Positions 2,630 through 50,469 of a stretch of DNA of 64,000 nucleotides are shown here, piece after piece. The first letter of the stretch is position 1. Each line of letters starts with the position of its first letter. The position numbers and the translations under genes are program-made. A model generated the notes under the pieces. That model saw nothing but the letters and a program-made list of their open reading frames with translations. It was not told the DNA's origin and did no database searches. The stretch is from an uncultured Bacilli bacterium (lineage in GTDB: Bacteria > Bacillota_I > Bacilli_A > RF39 > UBA660): assembly GCA_934086315.1 (NCBI GenBank), contig CAKOHZ010000001.1:472737-536736 (forward strand). The letters run 5' to 3'.

Positions 2630-3151
2630 GATGCCATATACTTTATCTTTAGTATCATAAAATAAGTAAGAATGTACTGGATAATACGTTAGATAATAAA
2701 ATATAAAGTATGTAAATATAATTAATAAAGTTCCAATCATCTTAGAATACTTAATTTCTTTAGTATTAAGAATACAATAACTAATATAAGATATAAGAAT
2801 ATAATCAAGAAATAATAGTACTATAGATACAATCATATTATGTCCTAAGTAATAATCAATAGGTAAGTAAACAATAAGATATGAAATAATACCAACTATT
2901 ATAGAAATACCATATGATAAAGAAAAATTATTAAATTTTATATTTTTCTTTCTATAAATAAAATACTCAATTAATGCATAAAAGAGTACTGGAGTAATAA
3001 GCAATTTCATATGTTCCCATATACTTTCATTAACAGGGAAAAGTATACTAAATATAAAATTATTAAACCATTCATACATAAAATGAGATAAAACAGATAA
3101 ACCCATAATAACAAAAACACCAATAATTTTAATTTTTTTCATAATAATCAT
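2615..3151 (-). CDS. Integral membrane protein, Tyr/Ile-rich, unknown function
   Basis: 178 aa with about five hydrophobic segments. No recognisable family. It sits convergent to the ADH gene. Confidence 0.5.
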   Translation of the reverse strand: MIIMKKIKIIGVFVIMGLSVLSHFMYEWFNNFIFSILFPVNESIWEHMKLLITPVLFYALIEYFIYRKKNIKFNNFSLSYGISIIVGIISYLIVYLPIDYYLGHNMIVSIVLLFLDYILISYISYCILNTKEIKYSKMIGTLLIIFTYFIFYYLTYYPVHSYLFYDTKDKVYGIKKED

Positions 3152-3159
3152 TAATATTA

Positions 3160-3296
3160 TGCTTATTTTCCTTGATTTTATACAACTTTTATGCTATTAT
3201 CAAGTAGTCGATTTATATCGGTGGATATAAATTAGAAGTGGGAGATTTAAGGATTATCGCGGAACCACTCGCGAAAAAAAATAACTAAAATATATA
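3160..3296 (+). promoter_or_regulatory. Structured leader upstream of rplK-rplA (possible L1/L11 autoregulatory leader)
   Basis: Hairpins gatttatatc-ggtg-gatataaatt and cgcg-gaaccact-cgcg plus gggag...aagg elements, directly upstream of the rplK SD. The functional assignment is inferred. Confidence 0.3.
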
Positions 3297-3309
3297 GGAG
3301 GTGTTTTTC

Positions 3310-3918
3310 GTGGCAAAGAATGTTGTAAAGAAAATCAAATTACAAATTCCAGCAGGTAAAGCTACACCAGCTCCACCAATCGGTACTGGATTAGGACCTA
3401 CAGGAATTAATCTACAAGAATTCTGTACAAAATACAATGAAGCAACAAGAGAAAAAATGGGAGATATCATACCAGTTGAAGTATCTATTTATGATGATAG
3501 AACATTTGACTTCGTATTAAAGACTCCACCAACTGCATCATTAATTAAGAAAGCAGCTGGAATTGAAAAAGGTAGTACAAAAGGTGCTAATAACATTGTT
3601 GCAACTATTTCAAAAGACGATATCGTTAAAATAGCTGAAATCAAAATGCCTGATTTAAATGCATATGATCAAGAAGCTGCTATTAATACAGTTGCTGGAA
3701 CAGCTAGAAATATGGGTGTTGCTATTAAGGGACTTAATGATTCAGAATTAGCTGAACATGCTAAAGAAGCTGCTGAAGCAGAAGCTCAAGCTGCTAAATT
3801 AGAAGAAGCTCTTGAAGAAATGGAAGAAAGTGCTAAAGCTATGGCTGAAGGTGCTAATGTTGAAGTTGAATCAACAGAACAATCTAAAGAAGACGAAGAT
3901 AAAGCAAGCGAAGAATAA
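3310..3918 (+). CDS. rplK: 50S ribosomal protein L11 with an unusual ~60-aa acidic/Ala-rich C-terminal extension
   Basis: VAKNVVKKIKLQIPAGKATPAPPIG... matches L11. GTG start at 3310 lies 8 nt after GGAGG. The canonical L11 ends near residue 141 but the ORF continues to residue 202. Confidence 0.85.
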   Translation: MAKNVVKKIKLQIPAGKATPAPPIGTGLGPTGINLQEFCTKYNEATREKMGDIIPVEVSIYDDRTFDFVLKTPPTASLIKKAAGIEKGSTKGANNIVATISKDDIVKIAEIKMPDLNAYDQEAAINTVAGTARNMGVAIKGLNDSELAEHAKEAAEAEAQAAKLEEALEEMEESAKAMAEGANVEVESTEQSKEDEDKASEE

Positions 3919-3987
3919 TTAAATAAAAATAAAATTATTCGTGAGAAAATATAGATAATCCAAATACCACATAAGGAGGTTAAGTTT

Positions 3988-4677
3988 ATGAAAAAACATA
4001 GTAAGATGTATGTGGAAGCATTAGGTAACGTTGACAAAAATAAAAGTTATGATGTTACTGAAGCGATAAAAGTACTTAAAAGTCTTAAACCTAGAAAATT
4101 TGATGAATCTGTAGACTTAGCATTAAAATTAAATATTGATGCTAAAAAGACTGATCAAAATATCAGAGGAAGTTTTGTTCTTCCAAATGGAACTGGTAAG
4201 ACTAAAAGAATATTAGTTGTTACTAAAACTAAAGCTGCTGAAGCTGGTGAAGCTGATTATTGTGGAGCAGAAGATATGATCGAAAAAATCGAAAAAGAAA
4301 ATTGGTTCGAATTCGATACAATCGTAGCTACTCCAGAAATGATGCCATTATTAGGTAAACTTGGTAAAGTTTTAGGTCCTAAAGGATTAATGCCAAACCC
4401 AAAACTTGGAACAGTTACTACTAATGTTAAAGATGCAATCACTAATATTAAAAAAGGTATGGTTGAATATAAGAATGATTCTTATGGAAACGTTCATATG
4501 TCAATCGGAAAACTATCATTTAGCGAAGAAAAACTTGAAGAAAATTTAAGAGCTATCGTTAATGAAATAGTTAAAAACAAACCAACAGCTGTTAAAGGTA
4601 CTTTTGTTAAAAACATTAGTGTTTCAACAACTATGGGTCCTGGTGTAAAAGTAGATAAAGCATCTCTAGGATTATAA
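3988..4677 (+). CDS. rplA: 50S ribosomal protein L1
   Basis: 229 aa with L1 motifs (VDLALKLNID, PKGLMPNPKLGTVT). GGAGG sits 9 nt upstream. Confidence 0.9.
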   Translation: MKKHSKMYVEALGNVDKNKSYDVTEAIKVLKSLKPRKFDESVDLALKLNIDAKKTDQNIRGSFVLPNGTGKTKRILVVTKTKAAEAGEADYCGAEDMIEKIEKENWFEFDTIVATPEMMPLLGKLGKVLGPKGLMPNPKLGTVTTNVKDAITNIKKGMVEYKNDSYGNVHMSIGKLSFSEEKLEENLRAIVNEIVKNKPTAVKGTFVKNISVSTTMGPGVKVDKASLGL

Positions 4678-16014: not shown

Positions 16015-16090
16015 TGGTGACCCGTACGGGATTTGAACCCATAAATGCACGCGTGAAAGGCGTGTGTGTTAACCGTTTCACCAACGGGCC
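16015..16090 (-). tRNA. tRNA-Glu (anticodon UUC)
   Basis: Reverse complement GGCCCGTTGGTGAAACGG...CACGC-CTTTCAC-GCGTG...GGGTTCAAATCCC...CCA folds as a cloverleaf with TTC in the anticodon loop. Confidence 0.8.
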
Positions 16091-16099
16091 ATTTATTAA

Positions 16100-16175
16100 T
16101 GGTGGGCCTGAATGGACTTGAACCATCGACCTTTCGCTTATCAGACGAACGCTCTAACCAGCTGAGCTACAGGCC
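16100..16175 (-). tRNA. tRNA-Ile (anticodon GAU)
   Basis: Reverse complement GGGCCTGTAGCTCAGCTGGTTAGAGCG-TTCGT-CTGATAA-GCGAA...GGTTCAAGTCC...CCA. Confidence 0.8.
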
Positions 16176-16336
16176 CATATCGCCACTTAATCGGCTGACT
16201 ACTTAATAATACAGTATTTTTTGCAATAATGCAACACTTTTTTTACAAAAATATCAATATTTTTAATAAATTTTATAAAATATTGCAAAAATAGTGCATT
16301 TATTGTATCATTATATATGAAAATAGGAGGAAAATT

Positions 16337-24240: not shown

Positions 24241-24254
24241 TGACGCATAAATCT

Positions 24255-24460
24255 TTGAAGTGGAGAAGTAATATATAGATGTTTTAAAGAGAGTTAGTGG
24301 CTGGTGAAAACTAATAAAACTATATATATGAATAACACCACTGAGTGGAACATTGAAATTCTAGTAAATGTTCTCGGTTAATCCGTTATAAAAATAAAGT
24401 TAATAAGAGGGATGGTACCGTCTATTTTTAGACTCCTTGTACTATCTCTCTTTTTTTGAA
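24255..24460 (+). ncRNA. T-box riboswitch leader (probable Asn specifier AAC)
   Basis: Stem I AGAGAG...GGTGAAAA elements, specifier-loop AUAACA, conserved T-box sequence agagGGATGGTACCGtc, and terminator gatggtac...gtactatc + T-tract directly upstream of asnS. Confidence 0.75.
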
Positions 24461-24479: not shown

Positions 24480-25859
24480 ATGGACGTTAAAGATTTATTT
24501 AAAGATATTTTAAAGTACGAAAATAAAGACGTTACTTTAGAAGGCTGGGTTCGTAATAATAGAAATCAATCAAATTTCGGATTCATTGATTTTAATGATG
24601 GAACTTATTTTCAAAGCTTACAATTAGTATATGAAAAAGAATTAAAAGGCTTTGATAGTATTAGTAAAATTAGAGTAGGAAGCGCTATAAGAGTAAATGG
24701 TACTATTGTTAAATCTGAAGGTAGTGGTCAAAGCCATGAAATGAAAGTTAAAAGTGTTGAAGTATTAGGAGATTCACCTGAAGATTATCCAATTCAACCA
24801 AAAAGACATACAAGAGAATTCTTAAGAGAAGTAGCATACTTAAGACCAAGAACTAATTTATTTAATGCAGTATTTAGAGTAAGAAGTGTAGCTGCTCAAG
24901 CAATACATGAATACTTCCAAAGTCATAACTATGTATATTTTCATAGTCCAATCATAACAGGAGCAGATTGTGAAGGATCAGGACAAATGTTCAAAATAAC
25001 TACTCTTGATATGAATAATCTTCCTTTAGGGGAAGATAAAAAAGTTGATTTTAAGAAAGATTTGTTTGGTAAACAAACATATATAACAGGTTCTGGTCAA
25101 CTTCATGGAGAAACTTTCGCTTTAGCGTACAAAAAGATATATACATTTGGTCCAACTATGAGAACAGAAAACTCAAATACTAAAACACATGCTAATGAAT
25201 TCTGGATGATTGAACCAGAAGTAGCATTCTGTGACCTAAATGGAATAATGGACATCGAAGAAGAAATGTTAAAATTCATAGTTAAATATGTTATGGACAA
25301 ATGTCCTTTAGAAATAGACTTCTTCGACAAATTCGTAGAGAAAGGATTAAAAGAAAAACTTACTAAAGTATTAAATACTAAGTTTGTACGTATTACTCAT
25401 AAAGAAGCAATTACTTTATTAAAAGAAGCTAAAGTTGACTTTGAATTCAAACCAGAATATGGCGAAGACATCGCTAAAGAACATGAAAAGTATATAACAG
25501 AACACTTTAATGGACCAGTATTTATTACTAATTGGCCAAAAGACATTAAAGCATTCTATATGAAATTAAATGAGGATAATGAAACAGTAGCAGCAGTTGA
25601 CTTAGAAGTACCAGGTTCTGGTGAACTAATGGGTGGAAGTCAAAGAGAAGATGACTACGATAAATTAATTAATAGAATGAAAGAAATGAATATACCAAGA
25701 GAAAACTTAGAATGGTATACTAACTTAAGAAGATTTGGAGGATGTTATCACTCAGGATTTGGTCTTGGATTTGAAAGACTTATTATGTACCTAACAGGTA
25801 TTGAAAACATAAGAGATGTAATTCCATATCCAAGAACACCTAATAACTGCGACTACTAA
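24480..25859 (+). CDS. asnS: Asparaginyl-tRNA synthetase
   Basis: Class IIb aaRS, 459 aa. N-terminal OB fold and QPKRHTREFLREVAYLRPRTN are typical of AsnRS. Confidence 0.8.
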   Translation: MDVKDLFKDILKYENKDVTLEGWVRNNRNQSNFGFIDFNDGTYFQSLQLVYEKELKGFDSISKIRVGSAIRVNGTIVKSEGSGQSHEMKVKSVEVLGDSPEDYPIQPKRHTREFLREVAYLRPRTNLFNAVFRVRSVAAQAIHEYFQSHNYVYFHSPIITGADCEGSGQMFKITTLDMNNLPLGEDKKVDFKKDLFGKQTYITGSGQLHGETFALAYKKIYTFGPTMRTENSNTKTHANEFWMIEPEVAFCDLNGIMDIEEEMLKFIVKYVMDKCPLEIDFFDKFVEKGLKEKLTKVLNTKFVRITHKEAITLLKEAKVDFEFKPEYGEDIAKEHEKYITEHFNGPVFITNWPKDIKAFYMKLNEDNETVAAVDLEVPGSGELMGGSQREDDYDKLINRMKEMNIPRENLEWYTNLRRFGGCYHSGFGLGFERLIMYLTGIENIRDVIPYPRTPNNCDY

Positions 25860-41937: not shown

Positions 41938-41961
41938 TTTTAAAGAGAATAGGTGACGAAC

Positions 41962-43509
41962 ATGTACATAGATAAGATGATAAAAAAAGAGGTTGCTACA
42001 TTAATTACATCAGTAGGACTTTTATTAATTATTTTTATTGGTGTATCATTTGCATCATTTTTTAAAATCGCCGAAGGAAAAGATAATGTTGTTGAGACAG
42101 GCGACTTAGCTATATCATTTTGTAGTGATTCAACATGTGATACAACTTATAATAATATAGGACAAGTAATAGGTACTACTAAGAAAAATGGAACATCAAC
42201 ACCAATTTCTATATATCCTTACCCAAATGATGGAACATATTCTAATGCTACCCCATATATATTTAATGTAGAAAACACTGGTAGTATGTCAGCAACAATT
42301 ACCATAAAATTAAAAGAAGATTCTGATTTTTTACCAAGTGGAAATTACTCTGAATATAAAAGACTTACTGAATTATACTCAAGCCATTTGAAAGTTGCAA
42401 TAAGAAAGAGAGTATTAGCTAACAATTCAAAATATCAAATGGGCGATGTTAATATGGATGGTATTGTTAATCAAAATGATGTAACATTGCTATATTCATA
42501 CATAGTAAATGGTTCAAATACTTTTACAGATGAACAAGAAAAGTTAGCTGATATAAATAATGATGGAGCTATAGATACAAACGATGTTGCTAATCTAATG
42601 AATATTATTAGAGGTGGAACCACAGAATATGAAAAGGTCTATATATATTCATTTAATGAATTAGTTGATAATGTTATATATTCTGGAGATAGAATAGAAG
42701 CCGGAGAAAGTGCAACATACTTTTTATGGATATATTTAGATGAAACAACACCTAATCAAGCGCAAAAAACATATTTTGTTGGAAATTTAGATATAGAAGG
42801 TGAATTTATTCCTGATGATTTACCATTTAGTTCAGCACCATGGAAAACAATTATAGAAAATGTAAAATCTGGTAATACTGATATGTATGAAGTTGGGGAT
42901 ACTAAAGAAGTAGATTTAGGTTCATTAGGTAAACATACTCTTAGAATTGCTAATAATTCAACACCAAGTCAATGTGGTACAGATGGTTACTCACAAACAG
43001 CTTGTGGATTTGTAGTCGAATTTGCAGATGTTGTTGCGATGAGAGTTATAAATAGTAAAGCAACTAATGTAGGTGGATGGCCATCAAGCGAGGTTAGAGC
43101 ATATATAAATAATACTGTATACAATAGTCTTCCATCTGATTTGAGAGCGGGAATTATTGATACAACAGTAATATCTGGTCATGGAAGTAATGAAACAAGT
43201 AATCTAAAATCAACTGATAAATTATATTTACTAGCACCTAAAGAAATATATTCTAATTATTCTAACAGTACTTATGATAGTGCAATATCAACAACTAGAC
43301 AGTTAGATTATTATGCATCATTAAAAATATCAATGAGTAGTTATAAAGGAGCAGGCAAAAAATACAATGGAAATAATACTTGGACTTGGTTAAGAACTGC
43401 TGTAGCCAATGGAACAACTTCATTCTGTAGTATAGGAGCAAGTGGAGATGGAGGCACAGGAGAAGCAAGTTCAGGTAGAGGTATTAGTCCAGCATTTAGA
43501 ATAGGTTAA
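41962..43509 (+). CDS. Membrane-anchored protein with dockerin-type calcium-binding repeat pair and C-terminal DUF6273-like domain
   Basis: N-terminal TM (ATLITSVGLLLIIFIGVSFASFF). Repeats GDVNMDGIVNQNDVTLL / ADINNDGAIDTNDVANL. C-terminal GGWPSSEVRAYINNTVYNSL...TDKLYLLAPKEIY pattern. ATG at 41962 lies 5 nt after aggtga. Confidence 0.6.
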   Translation: MYIDKMIKKEVATLITSVGLLLIIFIGVSFASFFKIAEGKDNVVETGDLAISFCSDSTCDTTYNNIGQVIGTTKKNGTSTPISIYPYPNDGTYSNATPYIFNVENTGSMSATITIKLKEDSDFLPSGNYSEYKRLTELYSSHLKVAIRKRVLANNSKYQMGDVNMDGIVNQNDVTLLYSYIVNGSNTFTDEQEKLADINNDGAIDTNDVANLMNIIRGGTTEYEKVYIYSFNELVDNVIYSGDRIEAGESATYFLWIYLDETTPNQAQKTYFVGNLDIEGEFIPDDLPFSSAPWKTIIENVKSGNTDMYEVGDTKEVDLGSLGKHTLRIANNSTPSQCGTDGYSQTACGFVVEFADVVAMRVINSKATNVGGWPSSEVRAYINNTVYNSLPSDLRAGIIDTTVISGHGSNETSNLKSTDKLYLLAPKEIYSNYSNSTYDSAISTTRQLDYYASLKISMSSYKGAGKKYNGNNTWTWLRTAVANGTTSFCSIGASGDGGTGEASSGRGISPAFRIG

Positions 43510-43539: not shown

Positions 43540-43605
43540 ATATATTTTTAGAAAAAAGAAGTGTTTTCATGTTTTATGCCTAACTATAATAATAGGAGGG
43601 TTAAA

Positions 43606-45666
43606 ATGTTAAATAAGAAATTAATAGTTAGGCAAAATGGATTAAAAGATTGTGGACCTTCTTGTTTACTTTCGATAATGAAATATTATGGATGTGAAGC
43701 ATCTCACGAAGAAGTCACATTTACTTTAAAAACAGATATAGATGGATCCAATGCATACAACATACTTAATGGAAGTAAAAACTATGGATTTGATGGATAT
43801 GGAGTACATTATACATATGAAGAAATTATCAATAATGAAATATCTTTCCCTATAATTTGTCATATAATAAAAAACAATATGTATCATTTTATAGTAGTTT
43901 ACAAAGTAAATAAAAATACGCTTACAATAATGGATCCATCTACAAATATAACTAAAATCTCATTTGAAGAATTTAAGAGTATGTATCAAAGTACATCATT
44001 AGTAATATACCCAATCAAGAAAGTAAATAATATAAGAAATAAAAACAAATTATTAGAAATCATTTATTCATACCTCAAACTAGAAAAAATTACTATACAC
44101 AAATTAATAATTACATCAATTCTTTTAATAATTGTAAGTATACTTCTTAATTATTATTCACTTATCTTAATAGATTATATATTACCGAATTATAATACAA
44201 ATATTTTGATAAAACTAACTATAATGTTTCTAGTAACAGCGATATTTAAAAGTACAATTAATTTTATAAGGGGTAAATTAATAATAGATATAAATTCTAA
44301 AATATCTATAAACTTAAACAATGATGTTACAAGAAAACTATTTAACCTTCCATATCAATTCTTCAAAAACAAATCTACTCCAGAAGTGATATCTAGAATT
44401 AACGATTTAAAAGACTTTAAAGACTCTTTAACCGAAATAATAATAAATGTATCTACTAATATATTATTAGTCTTTATAAGCATTATTTTACTATTAAAAA
44501 TAAATATAAAATTATTTATGATTTATTTATTAGAAATAATAATTTATATATTAATATTAATGATATATAAAAGAAACAATAATAAACATATAGATAATAT
44601 ATTAATAAATGAATCTAATTATAATAAAACACTAAATGAAAGTATATATAGTTATGAAATAAATAGAAACTTAAATTTAAAATCTCAAATTCTTAAAAAA
44701 TTGGAAATGTCAAATATAAAAAATAACTTTAGTAATAAAATATATGAAACCTCACTAAATACACAAATCTTTTTAAAAGAATTAACATCCAACATAACAT
44801 ATATATTTTCTATATTTATAGGTGTAATATTCATCCATAAAAATATAATATCTATTGGTAACTTTCTACTATTTAATTCATTAATTTATTATTTTACCGA
44901 TCCTTTAAAAAGTATATTAAATTTAGAACCAAATATTAATTATATAAAGAATGTATATAGGAGAATTAATGATTTATTACTAGTAACCACTAAAGAAGAA
45001 TTAGCTACAAATAAATTTATTGATGGTGATATTGTTATTAATAATTTAAGTTATAATAACTCTCTAATTCCATTATTTGAAAATGTATCATTTAAAATAA
45101 AATATGGTAGTAAATTCTTAATATATGGTGATAGCGGTAGTGGAAAAAGTACAATTATTAAAATATTATTAAAATATATAGAAGACTATAGTGGTGAAAT
45201 ATTAATTGATAATATAAATATTAAAGATATCAATTCAAATGTTATTTCTAATAGTATTACATATGTATCACAAAATAATTTTTTATTAAATGATACTTTA
45301 AAAAATAATATTATTTACGATAGAAGAATAAAGGAAGAAGACTATGAAAATGTTATTAAGTTGTGTAATTTAGAAGTATTAAGAAATAGTAGTAAATTAA
45401 GAAATAATATGATTATTGAAGAAGATGGATTTAATGTATCAGGTGGAGAAAGACAAAAAATTATATTAGCAAGAAGTATCTTAAAAGATAGCGAATTTAT
45501 AATTTTAGATGAAGCTTTAAGTGAAGTAGGTGTAGAAGAAGAAAAAGAAATACTTAAAAAGATATTTAAGTATTTTAAAGGCAAAACTATAATTTATATT
45601 AGTCATAAAGAAGAAATAATTTCTATGTTTAAAGACAAATATAAATTGGAAAGGAGTAAGGCTTGA
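43606..45666 (+). CDS. Peptidase C39-domain ABC transporter (double-glycine leader peptide cleavage/export; LagD/SunT/ComA family)
   Basis: N-terminal C39 with the catalytic Cys in LKDCGPSCLLS plus the His/Asp region (HFIVVY...MDPS). Six-TM ABC domain, Walker A GDSGSGKST, signature LSGGERQK, Walker B ILDEA, H-loop. ATG at 43606 follows aggaggg. Confidence 0.85.
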   Translation: MLNKKLIVRQNGLKDCGPSCLLSIMKYYGCEASHEEVTFTLKTDIDGSNAYNILNGSKNYGFDGYGVHYTYEEIINNEISFPIICHIIKNNMYHFIVVYKVNKNTLTIMDPSTNITKISFEEFKSMYQSTSLVIYPIKKVNNIRNKNKLLEIIYSYLKLEKITIHKLIITSILLIIVSILLNYYSLILIDYILPNYNTNILIKLTIMFLVTAIFKSTINFIRGKLIIDINSKISINLNNDVTRKLFNLPYQFFKNKSTPEVISRINDLKDFKDSLTEIIINVSTNILLVFISIILLLKINIKLFMIYLLEIIIYILILMIYKRNNNKHIDNILINESNYNKTLNESIYSYEINRNLNLKSQILKKLEMSNIKNNFSNKIYETSLNTQIFLKELTSNITYIFSIFIGVIFIHKNIISIGNFLLFNSLIYYFTDPLKSILNLEPNINYIKNVYRRINDLLLVTTKEELATNKFIDGDIVINNLSYNNSLIPLFENVSFKIKYGSKFLIYGDSGSGKSTIIKILLKYIEDYSGEILIDNINIKDINSNVISNSITYVSQNNFLLNDTLKNNIIYDRRIKEEDYENVIKLCNLEVLRNSSKLRNNMIIEEDGFNVSGGERQKIILARSILKDSEFIILDEALSEVGVEEEKEILKKIFKYFKGKTIIYISHKEEIISMFKDKYKLERSKA

Positions 45667-45803
45667 TGAATCAAGAAGAATTAATAAATATTAAAGGAGG
45701 AGCAAATTGGGCAGCAATAGGAGTTGGATCAACATTAGTCTCATTTCTGATAGGATTATTAGATGGTTATTTAAGACCTTTAAAATGCAATAAATGGAAG
45801 TAG
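45666..45803 (+). CDS. Double-glycine leader peptide precursor A (45 aa): leader MNQEELINIKGG + 33-aa core ANWAAIGVGSTLVSFLIGLLDGYLRPLKCNKWK
   Basis: Not in the ORF track (<60 aa). The ATG overlaps the TGA of the transporter (TGATG) and SD aaggag sits 9 nt upstream. The leader fits the GG-leader consensus (hydrophobic at -4, -7, -12; Glu at -8/-9). The core is amphipathic and cationic with a GxxxG (GLLDG). Confidence 0.7.
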   Translation: MNQEELINIKGGANWAAIGVGSTLVSFLIGLLDGYLRPLKCNKWK

Positions 45804-45952
45804 AAGAACTAGTAATGATTAAAGCAGGATCTGTTTCTGGTACTATTATTAATGCCGTGGTAAGAAGTGTTAAACTTGCATTAGAATTAGGAAGAAGCCT
45901 CGGTTCTGCAATCAGAAGAGCAAAAGAAAAGAAGAAATGTGAATATAGTTAG
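45794..45952 (+). CDS. Double-glycine-type leader peptide precursor B (52 aa): leader MEVEELVMIKAG + 40-aa core SVSGTIINAVVRSVKLALELGRSLGSAIRRAKEKKKCEYS
   Basis: Not in the ORF track. The ATG lies inside the last codons of peptide A (10-nt overlap). The leader is paralogous to peptide A (EEL..IK.G), with Ala-Gly at -2/-1. The core is cationic with a GxxxG (GRSLG). A terminator follows. Confidence 0.6.
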   Translation: MEVEELVMIKAGSVSGTIINAVVRSVKLALELGRSLGSAIRRAKEKKKCEYS

Positions 45953-45971
45953 CAAAAGCTAACTATATTTT
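45946..45971 (+). terminator. Terminator closing the transporter-peptide operon
   Basis: tagttagc-aaaa-gctaacta + tatttt, overlapping the peptide B stop. Confidence 0.6.
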
Positions 45972-46050
45972 AATTTAAAACTAAATTAATAAGAAAAAAA
46001 TAAAAAGTTTTTATCAATGTGAAAAATTTGTAAAAATACAAAAACTATTA

Positions 46051-46101
46051 TTGACATATAATATTAAATGGGTATAATTATTTTGTTAGTTACCTAACTA
46101 A
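46051..46101 (+). promoter_or_regulatory. Promoter TTGACA-16-TATAAT followed by a perfect palindrome TTAGTTA-cc-TAACTAA (probable MarR operator)
   Basis: ttgaca at 46051, tataat at 46073, 16-bp inverted repeat at 46086-46101 between the -10 and the marR SD. Confidence 0.55.
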
Positions 46102-46113
46102 AGGAATGATATT

Positions 46114-46557
46114 ATGAATGAAAAAAGTATTAGTTTGGAAATCAAAAAAATAGATAGTTTAATAGTAAGAAAAATAATATCTTATAATAAAAATTCTATT
46201 TATCAATTATCACCAGCTCAAATAGTAATAATAAAATATTTAATTAAGAACAAGAATAATATTGTATATCAAAAAGACATAGAAAAAAAATTAGGACTTA
46301 GAAAATCTACCATTTCTGGGATATTGAGTACAATGATTAAAAATGATATTATTACAAGAACTGAAGCGACAAGTGATTTAAGAAGTAAAGAAATAAAACT
46401 TACTGAAAAAGGACTAAAACTTGATAAGATAATGAAAAAGAAAGCACTTGAGTTTGAAAATTTATTGCAAAATAATATTGAACCTAAAGATTTAGAAATA
46501 TTTTATAAAGTGACTAATCAAATACAAAAGAATTTAGAAGGAGAGGAAAAATGTTAA
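46114..46557 (+). CDS. MarR-family transcriptional regulator
   Basis: 147 aa. Winged-helix region LSPAQIVIIKYL...QKDIEKKLGLRKSTISGILSTMIKNDII. Confidence 0.75.
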   Translation: MNEKSISLEIKKIDSLIVRKIISYNKNSIYQLSPAQIVIIKYLIKNKNNIVYQKDIEKKLGLRKSTISGILSTMIKNDIITRTEATSDLRSKEIKLTEKGLKLDKIMKKKALEFENLLQNNIEPKDLEIFYKVTNQIQKNLEGEEKC

Positions 46558-48305
46558 AGTTATTTAAAAACTTAGAAAAAAAAGACTGGCTATTTATATT
46601 TATAAGCTGTATATTTATAGTTTTACAAGTATGGTTAGAACTTAAAATACCTGATTATATGAGCAAGATAACAGAACTTGTACAGTTAAATGGAACAATT
46701 AAAGAAATACTAACTGAGGGAGCTTACATGTTAGCATGTGCATTTTTAAGTTTAGCATCTTCAGTAGTTGTAGGTTATATTATTGCAAATCTAGCATCAA
46801 ATTTTTCAAAGAATTTACGCGAAAAATTATTTAACAAAGTTCAAAGCTTTGGAATGGAAGAAATAAAAAAATTCCAAACCAGTAGTCTTATTACAAGAAC
46901 AACAAATGATATAGGTAATGTAGAAATGATGCTTACATTTGGTCTTCAAATGATTATAAAAGCACCAATTACTGCAATTTGGGCAGTTGGAAAAATACTT
47001 GGTAAAAGTTTTGAATGGACTGCAATCACTGGTGGAGCAGTACTAGTACTACTTATAATGGTAATAACGCTTATGACAATAGTATTACCAAGATTCAAAA
47101 TTGTACAAAAATTAATAGATAACATAAATGGACTAACAAGAGAAAACTTAAAAGGTATAAGAGTAGTAAGAGCATTTAATGCAGAAGGATACCAAGAAGA
47201 AAAGTTTGAAAAAGTAAATAAGAAACTTACTAACACACAATTATTTAATCAAAAGATTATGAGTTTAATGTCACCAATGATGTATTTAATAATGAATGGT
47301 GTTTCACTAGGAATATACTTTATGGGAGCATTTCTTATAAGAGATGCATTACTTGCTGATAAAATAACATTATTTAGTAATATGGTTGTATTCAGTAGTT
47401 ACGCAATGCAAGTAATAATGTCTTTCTTAATGTTAGCAATGATATTCATAATGTATCCAAGAGCATCTATTTCAGCAGATAGAATTAATGAGGTATTAAA
47501 CACAAAAGCAAAAATAAAAAGTGGTAAAGAAACTAGAGCATCAGAAGTTGGTACAATAGAATTTAAAAATGTATCGTTTAAATATCCTGATTCAGAAGAA
47601 TATGTACTTAAAGATATATCATTTAAGGCTGGTAAAGGAGAAACAATTGCTATTATTGGTTCGACTGGTAGTGGAAAAAGTACTCTAATAAATTTAATAC
47701 CCAGATTTTATGATGTAACTGAAGGAAAAGTATTAGTTGATGGAATAGATGTTAGAAACTACACACTTGATTCGTTACATGATCGTCTTGGTTACGTACC
47801 ACAAAGAGCAGTAATGTTTAGTGGTTCAGTTAATTATAATGTAGAATATGGTAAGAAAACAAACTATGAAGTTTCAGATAAAAAAATCAAAGAAGCCGTA
47901 AAGGTAGCACAAGCAGAAGAATTCGTAGAAAAGATGCCTAAAAAATATGAAGCTAATATCGCACAAGGCGGAACAAACGTATCAGGTGGTCAAAAACAAA
48001 GATTAAGTATCGCAAGAGCTATCGCAAGAGATCCAGAAATATATATATTTGATGACTCATTTAGTGCACTTGATTATAAAACAGATTATGTTTTAAGAAA
48101 AGAATTGAAGGAATATACAAAAGATGCAACAAGCATAATAGTGGCTCAAAGAATAGGTACTATCAAAAATGCAGATAAAATTATAGTTCTTGATAAAGGT
48201 AAATGTGTAGGAATTGGTACGCATAAAGAATTATTAAAAAATTGTGAAGTATATAAAGAAATAGCTTATTCACAATTATCAAAGGAGGAACTTGAAAATG
48301 AATAA
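46551..48305 (+). CDS. ABC exporter subunit (TMD-NBD fusion; heterodimeric multidrug/peptide exporter type)
   Basis: Six-TM domain, Walker A GSTGSGKST, signature VSGGQKQR, Walker B IFDDS. Overlaps marR and the next ABC gene. Confidence 0.85.
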   Translation: MLKLFKNLEKKDWLFIFISCIFIVLQVWLELKIPDYMSKITELVQLNGTIKEILTEGAYMLACAFLSLASSVVVGYIIANLASNFSKNLREKLFNKVQSFGMEEIKKFQTSSLITRTTNDIGNVEMMLTFGLQMIIKAPITAIWAVGKILGKSFEWTAITGGAVLVLLIMVITLMTIVLPRFKIVQKLIDNINGLTRENLKGIRVVRAFNAEGYQEEKFEKVNKKLTNTQLFNQKIMSLMSPMMYLIMNGVSLGIYFMGAFLIRDALLADKITLFSNMVVFSSYAMQVIMSFLMLAMIFIMYPRASISADRINEVLNTKAKIKSGKETRASEVGTIEFKNVSFKYPDSEEYVLKDISFKAGKGETIAIIGSTGSGKSTLINLIPRFYDVTEGKVLVDGIDVRNYTLDSLHDRLGYVPQRAVMFSGSVNYNVEYGKKTNYEVSDKKIKEAVKVAQAEEFVEKMPKKYEANIAQGGTNVSGGQKQRLSIARAIARDPEIYIFDDSFSALDYKTDYVLRKELKEYTKDATSIIVAQRIGTIKNADKIIVLDKGKCVGIGTHKELLKNCEVYKEIAYSQLSKEELENE

Positions 48306-50469
48306 CGAAAAAGAAAATAAAACTCCAAGAAGAATGCATGGACCAGGAGGAAGAGGCCCAGGTGAAAAACCAAAAGATTTTAAAAAAGCATTATCAAAAT
48401 TAAATAAATATTTAAACCCTTACAAACATTTAATAGTTATCGCAATAGTTTTATCAGCACTAAGTAGTATTTTATCAATAATAGGCCCAAACAAAATAAA
48501 AGATTTAACTAATGAAATACAAGAAGGATTAATAATTAATAAATCAAATATGGAACTACTTGTAAAAGACATACAATCAGATATACAAAATAATATTATG
48601 TTAGATGACAAATCATTAGAAACATTAAATGATGAAGATAAACAAAAATATTATGAAGTACTTAGCGAAATGTATACAAGTGATAACAAAGAAGAATTAA
48701 TTAATGAACTTCCTGAAAGTGCAAAGCTTTTAATATTTAAAGATACGACAATAGATGGGGTAATAATTACTAACAAAGATAAAGTAGAATTTGTAAACAC
48801 TATGTCTAAAGTTGATTTAAATGAACCAACTAAAATATATGGAGAATTAGATAAATTATCAAAAAATATTAATGAATTAATCAAACCAAAAATGGATATA
48901 GACAAAATAAAAAGTATTGCTTTCTTCTTAGTTTGTGTTTATTTGATAAGTGCAATATTTAGTTATTTCGAAAGTGTTCTAATGGTAGATGCATCTAATA
49001 ACTTTGCTAAAAGTTTAAGAACAAAAATATCTAAAAAGATTAATAAGTTACCACTTAAATACTTTGATAAAAATAGTTATGGTGATATATTATCAAGAGT
49101 AACTAACGATGTAGATACTATTAATATGTCTCTTCAAAATAGTTTAAGTACTTTAGTAGGTGCAGTAGCATTATTCATAGGTTCAATTATTATGATGTTT
49201 GTTACTAACTATATAATGGCAATTACTTGTATATTATCATCTTTATTTGGTTTTGCATTCATGGGAATAATACTTGGAAAATCACAAAAATATTTTAATC
49301 AAAGACAAGTAGAACTTGGTAAATTAAATGGTCACATCGAAGAAATATATAGTTCTCATAACGTTGTTAAAGCATATAATGGTGAAAAAGAATCATTAGA
49401 AAAATTCAATGTTCTAAATAAAAAAGTATATGATTGTAATCGAAAGAGTCAATTCTTATCTGGACTTATGCCACCTATGATGGGATTTATTGGTAACTTT
49501 AGTTATGTAGCAGTCTGCATAGTAGGTGCAATTCTTACATTAAAAGGAAATATTACATTTGGTACTATCGTAGCATTTATGATTTATGTAAGATTATTTA
49601 CAAGTCCATTATCTCAAATAGCTCAAAGTATGACACAACTTCAAACAGCAAGTGCAGCATCAGAAAGAGTATTTGAATTCATTGAAGAACCTGAAATGAC
49701 TGACGAATCTAATCTAAATGGAATTCTAGATCCTAAAAAAGTAGAAGGAAATATAGAATTTGAACATGTTAAATTCGGTTATGACAAAGATAAAATAATC
49801 ATAAAAGACTTTAATTGTAATGTTACAAAAGGACAAAAAGTAGCAATAGTAGGTCCAACAGGTGCAGGAAAAACAACTATAGTAAACCTACTTATGAAAT
49901 TCTACGAAATAAATAGTGGAAACATTAAAATAGATGGAATAAGTACTAAAAATTTAACAAGAGAAAACATTCACGATTTATTTATAATGGTTTTACAAGA
50001 TACTTGGCTATTTGATGGAACTATTAGAGATAATATTAAGTTTAATAAAAGTGATGTAAGTGATAAAGAAATATGGAAAGCTCTAGAAGTAGTTGGAGTA
50101 GATCACTTTGTAAAATCTCTTCCTAAAACACTAGACTATAAAATGGAAGATAATGAATCCATTTCAGCAGGGCAAAAACAATTACTTACTATAGCTCGTG
50201 GTATGATAAAAGATGCTCCATTCTTAATACTAGATGAAGCAACATCTTCAGTAGATACCAGAACAGAAGAACTAGTTCAAAAAGCAATGGACAAACTAAC
50301 TGAAGGAAGAACATCATTCATAATCGCGCACAGACTTTCAACAATTAAAAATGCTGATATTATACTTGTTATGAAAGATGGTAATATTATAGAAACTGGT
50401 TCACATGATGAATTAATGAAGAAAAATGGTTTCTATGCTGAACTTTACAATTCACAATTTCAAAACTAA
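48292..50469 (+). CDS. ABC exporter subunit (partner of the preceding; ~130-aa insertion in the first extracytoplasmic loop)
   Basis: Walker A GPTGAGKTT, signature ISAGQKQL, Walker B ILDEA. 725 aa against the usual ~590, with the extra segment between TM1 and TM2. Confidence 0.85.
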   Translation: MKMNNEKENKTPRRMHGPGGRGPGEKPKDFKKALSKLNKYLNPYKHLIVIAIVLSALSSILSIIGPNKIKDLTNEIQEGLIINKSNMELLVKDIQSDIQNNIMLDDKSLETLNDEDKQKYYEVLSEMYTSDNKEELINELPESAKLLIFKDTTIDGVIITNKDKVEFVNTMSKVDLNEPTKIYGELDKLSKNINELIKPKMDIDKIKSIAFFLVCVYLISAIFSYFESVLMVDASNNFAKSLRTKISKKINKLPLKYFDKNSYGDILSRVTNDVDTINMSLQNSLSTLVGAVALFIGSIIMMFVTNYIMAITCILSSLFGFAFMGIILGKSQKYFNQRQVELGKLNGHIEEIYSSHNVVKAYNGEKESLEKFNVLNKKVYDCNRKSQFLSGLMPPMMGFIGNFSYVAVCIVGAILTLKGNITFGTIVAFMIYVRLFTSPLSQIAQSMTQLQTASAASERVFEFIEEPEMTDESNLNGILDPKKVEGNIEFEHVKFGYDKDKIIIKDFNCNVTKGQKVAIVGPTGAGKTTIVNLLMKFYEINSGNIKIDGISTKNLTRENIHDLFIMVLQDTWLFDGTIRDNIKFNKSDVSDKEIWKALEVVGVDHFVKSLPKTLDYKMEDNESISAGQKQLLTIARGMIKDAPFLILDEATSSVDTRTEELVQKAMDKLTEGRTSFIIAHRLSTIKNADIILVMKDGNIIETGSHDELMKKNGFYAELYNSQFQN

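Follow-up and report, generated by a model that had tools for sequence, protein, structure and literature searches.

Within a 64,000-nucleotide (nt) stretch of DNA from an uncultured Bacilli bacterium of the RF39 lineage (UBA660; GenBank assembly GCA_934086315.1, contig CAKOHZ010000001.1, forward-strand positions 472,737 to 536,736), which we refer to as the window, a gene for an ATP-binding cassette (ABC) exporter with a C39 peptidase domain is followed by two overlapping small genes, whose products we call peptides A and B. The original prediction, made from the letters alone, proposed that these encode a two-peptide bacteriocin or pheromone pair. The order exporter, A, B, and then a terminator was confirmed, with the features placed as follows.

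43551 to 43596, plus strand: promoter-region element of 46 nt with TATAAT at 43585-43590, recognized by its near-invariance among relatives
43594 to 43599, plus strand: Shine-Dalgarno sequence AGGAGG of the exporter gene, after the 46-nt element
43606 to 45666, plus strand: peptidase-containing ABC exporter (PCAT), 686 aa, assigned from its Pfam domains and its alignment with PCAT1
45650 to 45656, plus strand: Shine-Dalgarno sequence AAAGGAG of peptide A, within the end of the exporter gene, read from the letters and kept in relatives
45666 to 45803, plus strand: predicted peptide A precursor, 45 aa, with a 12-aa Gly-Gly (GG) leader and a 33-aa core, backed by homologues and by the ratio of nonsynonymous to synonymous substitution rates (dN/dS)
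45794 to 45952, plus strand: predicted peptide B precursor, 52 aa, with a 12-aa Ala-Gly leader and a 40-aa core, backed by homologues and dN/dS
45941 to 45978, plus strand: intrinsic terminator, a hairpin and then a U-rich tract, from a terminator scan and folding against shuffled sequences
46051 to 46078, plus strand: TTGACA-16-TATAAT promoter of the next unit (marR), a perfect consensus match

Peptide A (leader MNQEELINIKGG, core ANWAAIGVGSTLVSFLIGLLDGYLRPLKCNKWK) begins at an ATG that overlaps the TGA of the exporter gene (TGATG), and its Shine-Dalgarno sequence, which is invariant in five aligned relatives, ends 9 nt before that ATG; the length, overlap, and good ribosome-binding site first described for this open reading frame (ORF) are borne out. 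An alternative start, TTG at 45663, lies one codon upstream and would give a 13-aa leader; an ATG occupies this position in the related loci L007 and L012. The leader residues at -4, -7, -8, and -12 are those of the double-glycine type, as noted originally. Mature A would comprise 33 residues with a charge of +3 and a hydrophobic stretch (monoisotopic mass, 3602.98 Da), with GxxxG at G30-G34 and a single Cys, Cys41. The GG, F27, G30, G34, and C41 do not vary across nine diverse members of the family, whose C-terminal motif reads (F)xIGxxDG(Y/F)xRPLxC; 7 residues separate GxxxG from the Cys, a stretch without alignment gaps except in the divergent locus L021. AlphaFold2 models A as a single long helix with moderate confidence.

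Peptide B (leader MEVEELVMIKAG, core SVSGTIINAVVRSVKLALELGRSLGSAIRRAKEKKKCEYS) overlaps A by 10 nt, in keeping with the claim that it starts within the end of A and has a leader ending in Ala-Gly. It is without a Shine-Dalgarno sequence of its own, and its leader is exactly 12 residues long because an in-frame TAA directly precedes its ATG. Mature B would have 40 residues, a charge of +6, and a mass of 4316.45 Da, and it is amphipathic, with a helical hydrophobic moment of 0.69; the original description of both cores as cationic and amphipathic holds in full for B, whereas A is cationic but mainly hydrophobic. The GxxxG of B (G33-G37; core motif LELGRSLGSAIRR) is separated from its single Cys, Cys49, by 12 residues without alignment gaps, so that both peptides possess the GxxxG and lone Cys initially ascribed to them. 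AlphaFold2 places a helix at residues 16-44, with a predicted local distance difference test score (pLDDT) of about 90 in midhelix. A 5.8-billion-protein collection held 13 close homologues of A and 5 of B.

In the B family, G12, G33, G37, and C49 are invariant in an alignment of 31 sequences; GxxxG is present in all 120 of the B clusters, exactly one core Cys in 115 of the 120, and a Cys 0-4 residues from the end likewise in 115 of the 120. The leader site is GG in 108 clusters and AG in 12, and the commonest leader lengths in the family are 12 and 15 residues. Because AG recurs in several B sublineages, that of the window included, the Ala-Gly site appears to be a tolerated variant of the cleavage site and not damage. 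In two metagenome variants of 78-86 aa, P0016 and P0017, B continues past its stop (…KKCTYSQRKL…) into the region of the terminator, reflecting either loss of the stop codon or sequencing variants. A further variant, P0112, is a natural fusion with a frameshifted A part.

We set the start of the exporter at ATG 43606, the program-made ORF beginning at GTG 43561, because relatives begin with MLNKK and AGGAGG stands at 43594-43599. The product exceeds the Pfam cutoffs for Peptidase_C39 (PF03412; 4e-28, 98 bits), ABC_membrane (6e-26), and ABC_tran (2e-25), and it has the PCAT architecture of an N-terminal C39 domain with Cys, His, and Asp together with a six-helix membrane domain of the ABC type and an ATPase domain. 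The closest solved structures are PCAT1 (4RY2; E = 7e-75, full length) and ComA (4e-73). The Cys of DCG, the His of HFIVVY, and the Asp of IMDP align with index positions 24, 102, and 118 of PCAT1, which we take to be C21, H99, and D115 in native numbering, and the upstream Gln is likewise aligned. In the ATPase domain the Walker A motif (GDSGSGKST), the ABC signature (VSGGERQ), and the Walker B motif (ILDEA) are intact. Because Cys, His, and Asp align with the catalytic residues of PCAT1, the C39 domain is predicted to be catalytic; the worry voiced at the outset, that it might be an inactive C39-like variant, is thereby answered at the level of the residues. The exporter scores 339 bits with TIGR01193, below the NCBIfam cutoff of 523.85, which points to a divergent branch and not to a faulty architecture; it also matches NF045998, the Mbov_0121-family peptidase ABC transporter, over its full length (288 bits; cutoff, 500).

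The exporter, A, and B appear to form one self-contained transcription unit, because they are framed upstream by an AT-rich hairpin and T-run that follow the preceding gene (as read from the sequence) and by a conserved promoter region, and downstream by the terminator after B. The 46-nt element (TAAAAAAAGAAGTGTTTTAGTATTTTATGCCTAACTATAATAATAG), which we infer to be a promoter, is nearly unchanged in relatives despite different upstream genes and is present once in the window, where chance alone would give 0 matches. The terminator hairpin has a perfect 13-bp stem that spans the B stop codon (dG, -16.7 kcal/mol; z, -6.2), and its fold was equalled by none of 200 shuffled sequences; across relatives the loop varies and the stem stays conserved. 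The geometry of the A/B overlap is also kept in aligned relatives. In two related loci the 46-nt element is a direct repeat around the trio (L007, 4945-4990 and 7370-7415; L003, 3885-3930 and 6310-6355), with copies spaced by exactly 2425 nt that are 96% and 80% identical. The second copy follows the B terminator and precedes a transposase-like PDDEXK_2 gene that the window does not have; this repeat could reflect duplication of the promoter or mark the edge of a cassette.

A and B are real genes under purifying selection. Against seven related loci, dN/dS was 0.10-0.15 for A and 0.13-0.29 for B (dS, 0.3-0.8), and no full-length related locus has lost either ORF, even where exporter identity is down to about 32%, so that the integrity on which the original prediction depended is retained. 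That they could instead be chance ORFs or decaying remnants without a product might be entertained on account of their shortness, the missing Shine-Dalgarno sequence of B, and the fact that gene callers passed over B in most related contigs. This notion is already contradicted by the comparative data, which, besides the low dN/dS and the intact ORFs, include hundreds of members with invariant motifs and a conserved overlap geometry and terminator; we accord it next to no probability.

A scan of one genome per species recovered the trio behind exporters that are from 89% to about 32% identical to that of the window; 25 loci were reached via A, a distant B relative, or the exporter, and 58 more via a metagenome scan with the B motif. 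In locus L093 both the exporter and A are 100% identical to those of the window. According to profile searches, about 100 related loci share the exporter-A-B order. Wherever the flank suffices, essentially every B has A immediately upstream and a C39-ABC gene before A, which is the co-occurrence that had been proposed as a check. Among 1.84 billion representatives, the B profile, built from 31 sequences, retrieved 461 clusters at 50% identity (E<=1e-3), almost all of 49-60 aa, and the B family comprises 577 clusters at 90% identity. The relatives from the genome scan are all metagenome-assembled genomes that carry the label uncultured Bacilli, Mollicutes, Tenericutes, or Clostridium sp., and the A/B family was met solely in uncultured bacteria of the gut, the rumen, and digesters. 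No relative turned up when viral contigs were scanned, and we rejected a phage origin on this ground.

The one clear exception to the gene order is L115, where a 560-aa large serine recombinase (2770-4452), with phage-like genes upstream, directly precedes B (4483-4647). This recombinase element stands where A and the exporter would be, and the A/B junction may be an integration site for a mobile element. A different elaboration is seen in L131-L139, where a third GG peptide, B-like and lacking Cys, starts about 10 nt after B (L134, 4666-4803, 45 aa; leader MSNEELMSVHGG, core RLNITISYSYNSVMGYLYTLGRRIGTYFNRLFH); this lineage would be a three-peptide version.

The closest parallels to this arrangement are suggested by the class IIb two-peptide bacteriocins, for which we drew the criteria from a review (PMC2850506). 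As in that class, the window has adjacent genes for two peptides, GG-type leaders, a C39 exporter, and GxxxG (or AxxxA/SxxxS) in both peptides, and class IIb peptides are proposed to pack via GxxxG in the target membrane (PMC2850506). With each computable hallmark present in the sequences and conserved in the sampled families, the class IIb-type reading of the pair finds support. We propose that the pair is, with moderate probability, an exported, leader-cleaved two-peptide bacteriocin of the class IIb type, in which A and B are possibly linked by a disulfide.

From the sequences we infer the following course of cleavage, export, pairing, disulfide formation, and killing. Peptide A would be translated from its own Shine-Dalgarno sequence and B by coupling to A through the 10-nt overlap. 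The C39 domain of the exporter would recognize the 12-residue leaders and cut after Gly-Gly in A and after Ala-Gly in B, and the ABC part would export the 33-aa hydrophobic core of A and the 40-aa cationic, amphipathic core of B. Outside the cell, the helices of A and B would pair via the invariant GxxxG, their C-terminal Cys residues probably forming a disulfide (heterodimer, 7917.41 Da), and the pair would then insert into the membranes of competitors and permeabilize them. The single invariant Cys of each peptide is flanked by basic residues and, since it also keeps a fixed spacing to GxxxG, suggests an interchain disulfide. In a parallel arrangement, the 7 residues of A that follow GxxxG, being broken by Pro and partly extended, might roughly match in span the 12 helical residues of B.

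The same invariant Cys, close to the C terminus and at a fixed spacing in both families, and often found in a third small protein considered below, could be taken to mean that A and B are precursors of ribosomally synthesized and posttranslationally modified peptides (RiPPs), the Cys being modified by glycosylation, lipidation, or thioether formation through enzymes encoded elsewhere. There is, however, only a single Cys in each peptide and no Ser/Thr-Cys pattern of the kind typical of lanthipeptides, and the inspected loci had no recognizable modification-enzyme gene, the survey of about 100 loci covering fixed marker proteins only. We consider modification of this kind highly improbable.

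Several observations weigh against a class IIb-type bacteriocin. The leaders of both A and B have 12 residues, as against the 15-30 of class IIb leaders (PMC2850506), confirming the earlier remark that they are unusually short, and the Ala at -2 of B departs from the canonical double-glycine site. The class IIb operon always holds an immunity gene (PMC2850506) and the window operon has none; nor is there room for an accessory protein gene ahead of A, the exporter stop overlapping the A start, and the B stop and the terminator have no ORF between them. Indeed, no immunity-like or HlyD-like ORF was found in the window operon or in those of close relatives, as had been noted for the operon from the start. 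A hidden immunity gene or a further GG peptide in the window was considered and rejected, as profiles for A, B, and small membrane proteins together with a regular expression for leaders recovered A and B alone from the 64 kb. Further, the reducing, anaerobic habitats of the hosts weaken the disulfide step.

The curated families speak on both sides: in Pfam and NCBIfam searches the window A falls below every cutoff and B reaches none, which accords with the suggestion of a divergent or undescribed family. With TIGR03949 (lactobin A/cerein 7B; cutoff, 21.5 bits), the window A scores 13.8 and its close relatives 16.4, and 5 of 10 diverse A relatives pass at 23.2-35.8 bits. Window A reaches 18.6 bits against a cutoff of 37 with NF038034 (lactococcin G-beta/enterocin 1071B) and 15.7 against 27.1 with PF10439 (Bacteriocin_IIc), B matching neither model, and sub-threshold matches to Bacteriocin_IIc and lactococcin G-beta recur in the A and B families; these recurrent matches and the A relatives that pass TIGR03949 count in favor of a class IIb link, the shortfall of the window peptides against it. 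The A and B profiles gave nothing meaningful against all Protein Data Bank sequences. Because half of the diverse A relatives pass the TIGR03949 model, A is best placed as a divergent branch beside the lactobin A/cerein 7B family, and B as an unnamed family with no counterpart among the curated ones. Together they seem to be a large, new, uncharacterized family of a known type of system.

The mode of inheritance is a last point of this kind. In close relatives the gene order is pknB-rsgA-rpe, a variable slot for a surface protein, exporter, A, B, marR, two ABC exporter genes, yqfC, and yqfD, with a PDDEXK_2 gene between B and marR in some. Across the whole range the trio lies upstream of rpsU-yqeY, upstream of yqfC-yqfD, or, as in the window, upstream of marR, two ABC exporter genes, and yqfC-yqfD. 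The identity of the exporter to that of the window tracks that of the flanking YqfD (Spearman, 0.79; n = 13) and Rpe (0.94; n = 9), and where exporters are only about 32% identical, A is still 41-56% and B 51-54% identical. The fixed neighborhood, the tracking of YqfD and Rpe, and the slow divergence of the peptides indicate that the locus is inherited vertically at a fixed chromosomal site under strong constraint and is not a mobile bacteriocin island; in changing less than the exporter, the peptides depart from the usual fast diversification of bacteriocins. The locus has a G+C content of 21%, as against 28% for the window, the dip being limited to the exporter's membrane domain, which is rich in Ile, Asn, and Leu. 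Horizontal transfer, which the low G+C content could suggest, was rejected on account of this restriction and of a divergence that follows the flanking housekeeping genes.

Because immunity and accessory genes are lacking, inheritance is vertical, and the peptides outconserve the exporter, a non-killing role has to be weighed. The pair would then be exported and cleaved in the same way and act as a conserved, lineage-wide secreted or membrane-reinserting heterodimer, serving the producer, for instance, in signaling, in the envelope, or in development. We judge this possible but unlikely. In its favor are the core-like vertical inheritance beside rpsU-yqeY or yqfC-yqfD over deep divergence, the high conservation of the peptides, the fact that the window clade and several other lineages have no immunity gene, and a dN/dS far under 1. 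As regards a signal, no sensor kinase, response regulator, or peptide-sensing regulator stands beside the window locus or the related loci whose gene calls and Pfam labels were inspected, and these loci, like the roughly 8 kb around the trio, are devoid of the two-component genes expected for a ComC/BlpC-type pheromone; the pheromone half of the original prediction thus finds no support in the neighborhood of the trio. The combination of a hydrophobic helix with a +6 amphipathic helix, both with GxxxG, is moreover the design of a membrane-active two-peptide bacteriocin, some of the A relatives exceed the cutoff of a class IIb model, and many relatives encode an immunity-like mimic of B at the usual position of immunity genes.

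This last protein is encoded in many distant relatives by an ORF of 45-59 codons that begins 12 nt, or in a few cases 6, 15, or 31 nt, before the B stop, and we found at least 15 distinct sequence variants of it. It has a basic N terminus, one membrane helix, a B-like G-x3-G-x3-R motif (e.g., IIFKFGNIVGTFIR), and usually a Cys in its last four residues, and it matches nothing in Pfam or NCBIfam. Examples, found also in L108, L111, L119, L144, and L146, are as follows.

L086, 3487 to 3633: ORF for the 45-59-aa protein
L115, 4635 to 4799: ORF for the 45-59-aa protein
L022, 7306 to 7458: ORF for the 45-59-aa protein

Because of its design and of its position, which is that of class IIb immunity genes (PMC2850506), it looks like a good candidate for the immunity protein, being in effect a membrane-anchored mimic of B. 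Many distant loci further have, between the exporter and A, a gene for a protein of 137-150 aa with one N-terminal membrane helix.

L020, 7024 to 7437: gene for the 137-150-aa protein
L021, 2224 to 2637: gene for the 137-150-aa protein
L086, 2731 to 3183: gene for the 137-150-aa protein

This protein has no Pfam match and a full-length sub-threshold match to NF045999, the mycoplasma MAG1140 family (27.8 bits; cutoff, 35). The accession NF045999 comes directly after NF045998, the Mbov_0121 family matched by the exporter, and the consecutive numbering suggests that true mycoplasmas carry a related pair of exporter and partner. The window clade has neither the 45-59-aa gene nor the 137-150-aa gene nor a third GG peptide.

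If the pair is a bacteriocin as we propose, a testable function is at hand for two unannotated genes and for hundreds of peptide variants, and any activity would offer new narrow-spectrum membrane-active antimicrobials and a tool for studying competition among tiny-genome bacteria. The invariant Cys of both chains, found also in the candidate immunity protein, suggests a disulfide-linked two-chain design with immunity by mimicry. In the literature on two-peptide bacteriocins we found no report of a disulfide between chains and no description of immunity by mimicry, and searches on the motifs, RF39, Mollicutes, and the Mbov_0121/MAG1140 topics found no description of the A/B family. With its 12-residue leaders and recurring Ala-Gly site, the family helps to define the minimal signal for a C39 exporter, which could be useful for engineering peptide secretion. 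A bolder picture would make the trio an ancient, vertically inherited core operon of a large clade of uncultured Bacilli with reduced genomes, encoding a disulfide-linked two-chain peptide, the guard, where there is one, being a membrane-anchored B decoy that captures A, with a primary role beyond strain warfare (envelope, developmental, or host directed); as a whole we hold this to be rather doubtful.

Several neighbors of the trio are of note in their own right. Within about 8 kb the window has rlmN, a PP2C phosphatase, a PknB kinase, rsgA, rpe, a DUF6273 protein, marR, two ABC exporters, yqfC, yqfD, a VanZ-like gene, ybeY, and dgkA. The DUF6273 protein (41953-43509, plus strand), which precedes the exporter, has 518 aa with an N-terminal membrane helix, a pair of dockerin type I repeats, and the C-terminal DUF6273 domain; its slot is variable, with pilin-like N_methyl and LRR_5 proteins in close relatives, and its N terminus (SFASFFKIAEGKDNVVETGDL) presumably bears a loose resemblance to TasA/camelysin-type signal regions. 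Downstream, marR lies behind a perfect sigma-70 promoter together with two fused genes for ABC exporters of 584 and 725 aa (46114-50469), and the distant loci L013 and L144 have a similar exporter pair after the trio; a link of the marR and ABC exporter genes with tolerance of the peptides is possible. Elsewhere in the window, a T-box leader (24246-24440, plus strand; 117 bits) stands upstream of the ORF at 24480-25859, and two tRNA genes lie on the minus strand (16018-16176) in what is almost wholly a plus-strand region.

A comparison with known systems places the locus more precisely. Its exporter is similar over its full length to PCAT1 of Clostridium thermocellum and likewise comes with no accessory protein gene; the cargo of the window is a pair of short peptides, whereas that of PCAT1 is CtA, a single larger polypeptide to whose leader peptide the A and B profiles show faint matches. 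We know of no function established for CtA itself. The locus also differs from ComA/ComC of Streptococcus, in which ComC is a pheromone with a cognate two-component system. As for the Mbov_0121/MAG1140 pair of mycoplasmas, the exporter and the 137-150-aa protein match these families below the cutoffs and the window has no MAG1140-like gene; Mbov_0121 is mentioned in a secretome study and a comparative-genomics study, neither of which appears to center on the transporter.

CibAB of Streptococcus pneumoniae is a chromosomal two-peptide bacteriocin, conserved species-wide, with GG leaders and a tiny membrane immunity protein, CibC, encoded directly downstream; its exporter is encoded elsewhere and the system is under competence control. 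The gene for CibC is placed like that for the small membrane protein which distant relatives of the trio encode; the window is without such a gene, and no sequence similarity to CibAB was detected. The matches of A relatives to the lactobin A/cerein 7B model cover the leader and the Gly-rich hydrophobic core, whereas the A-family motif IGxxDGYxRPLxC lies at or past the end of the model and B is without a counterpart there. Finally, like lactococcin G and enterocin 1071 (PMC2850506), the locus has two adjacent small genes, GG-type leaders, a C39-ABC exporter, and helical cationic peptides with GxxxG. It is unlike them in having neither an immunity nor an accessory gene in the window, in its 12-aa leaders, that of B ending in Ala-Gly, in the invariant C-terminal Cys of each peptide, and in being what looks like a slowly evolving, vertically inherited locus confined to uncultured Bacilli with reduced genomes.

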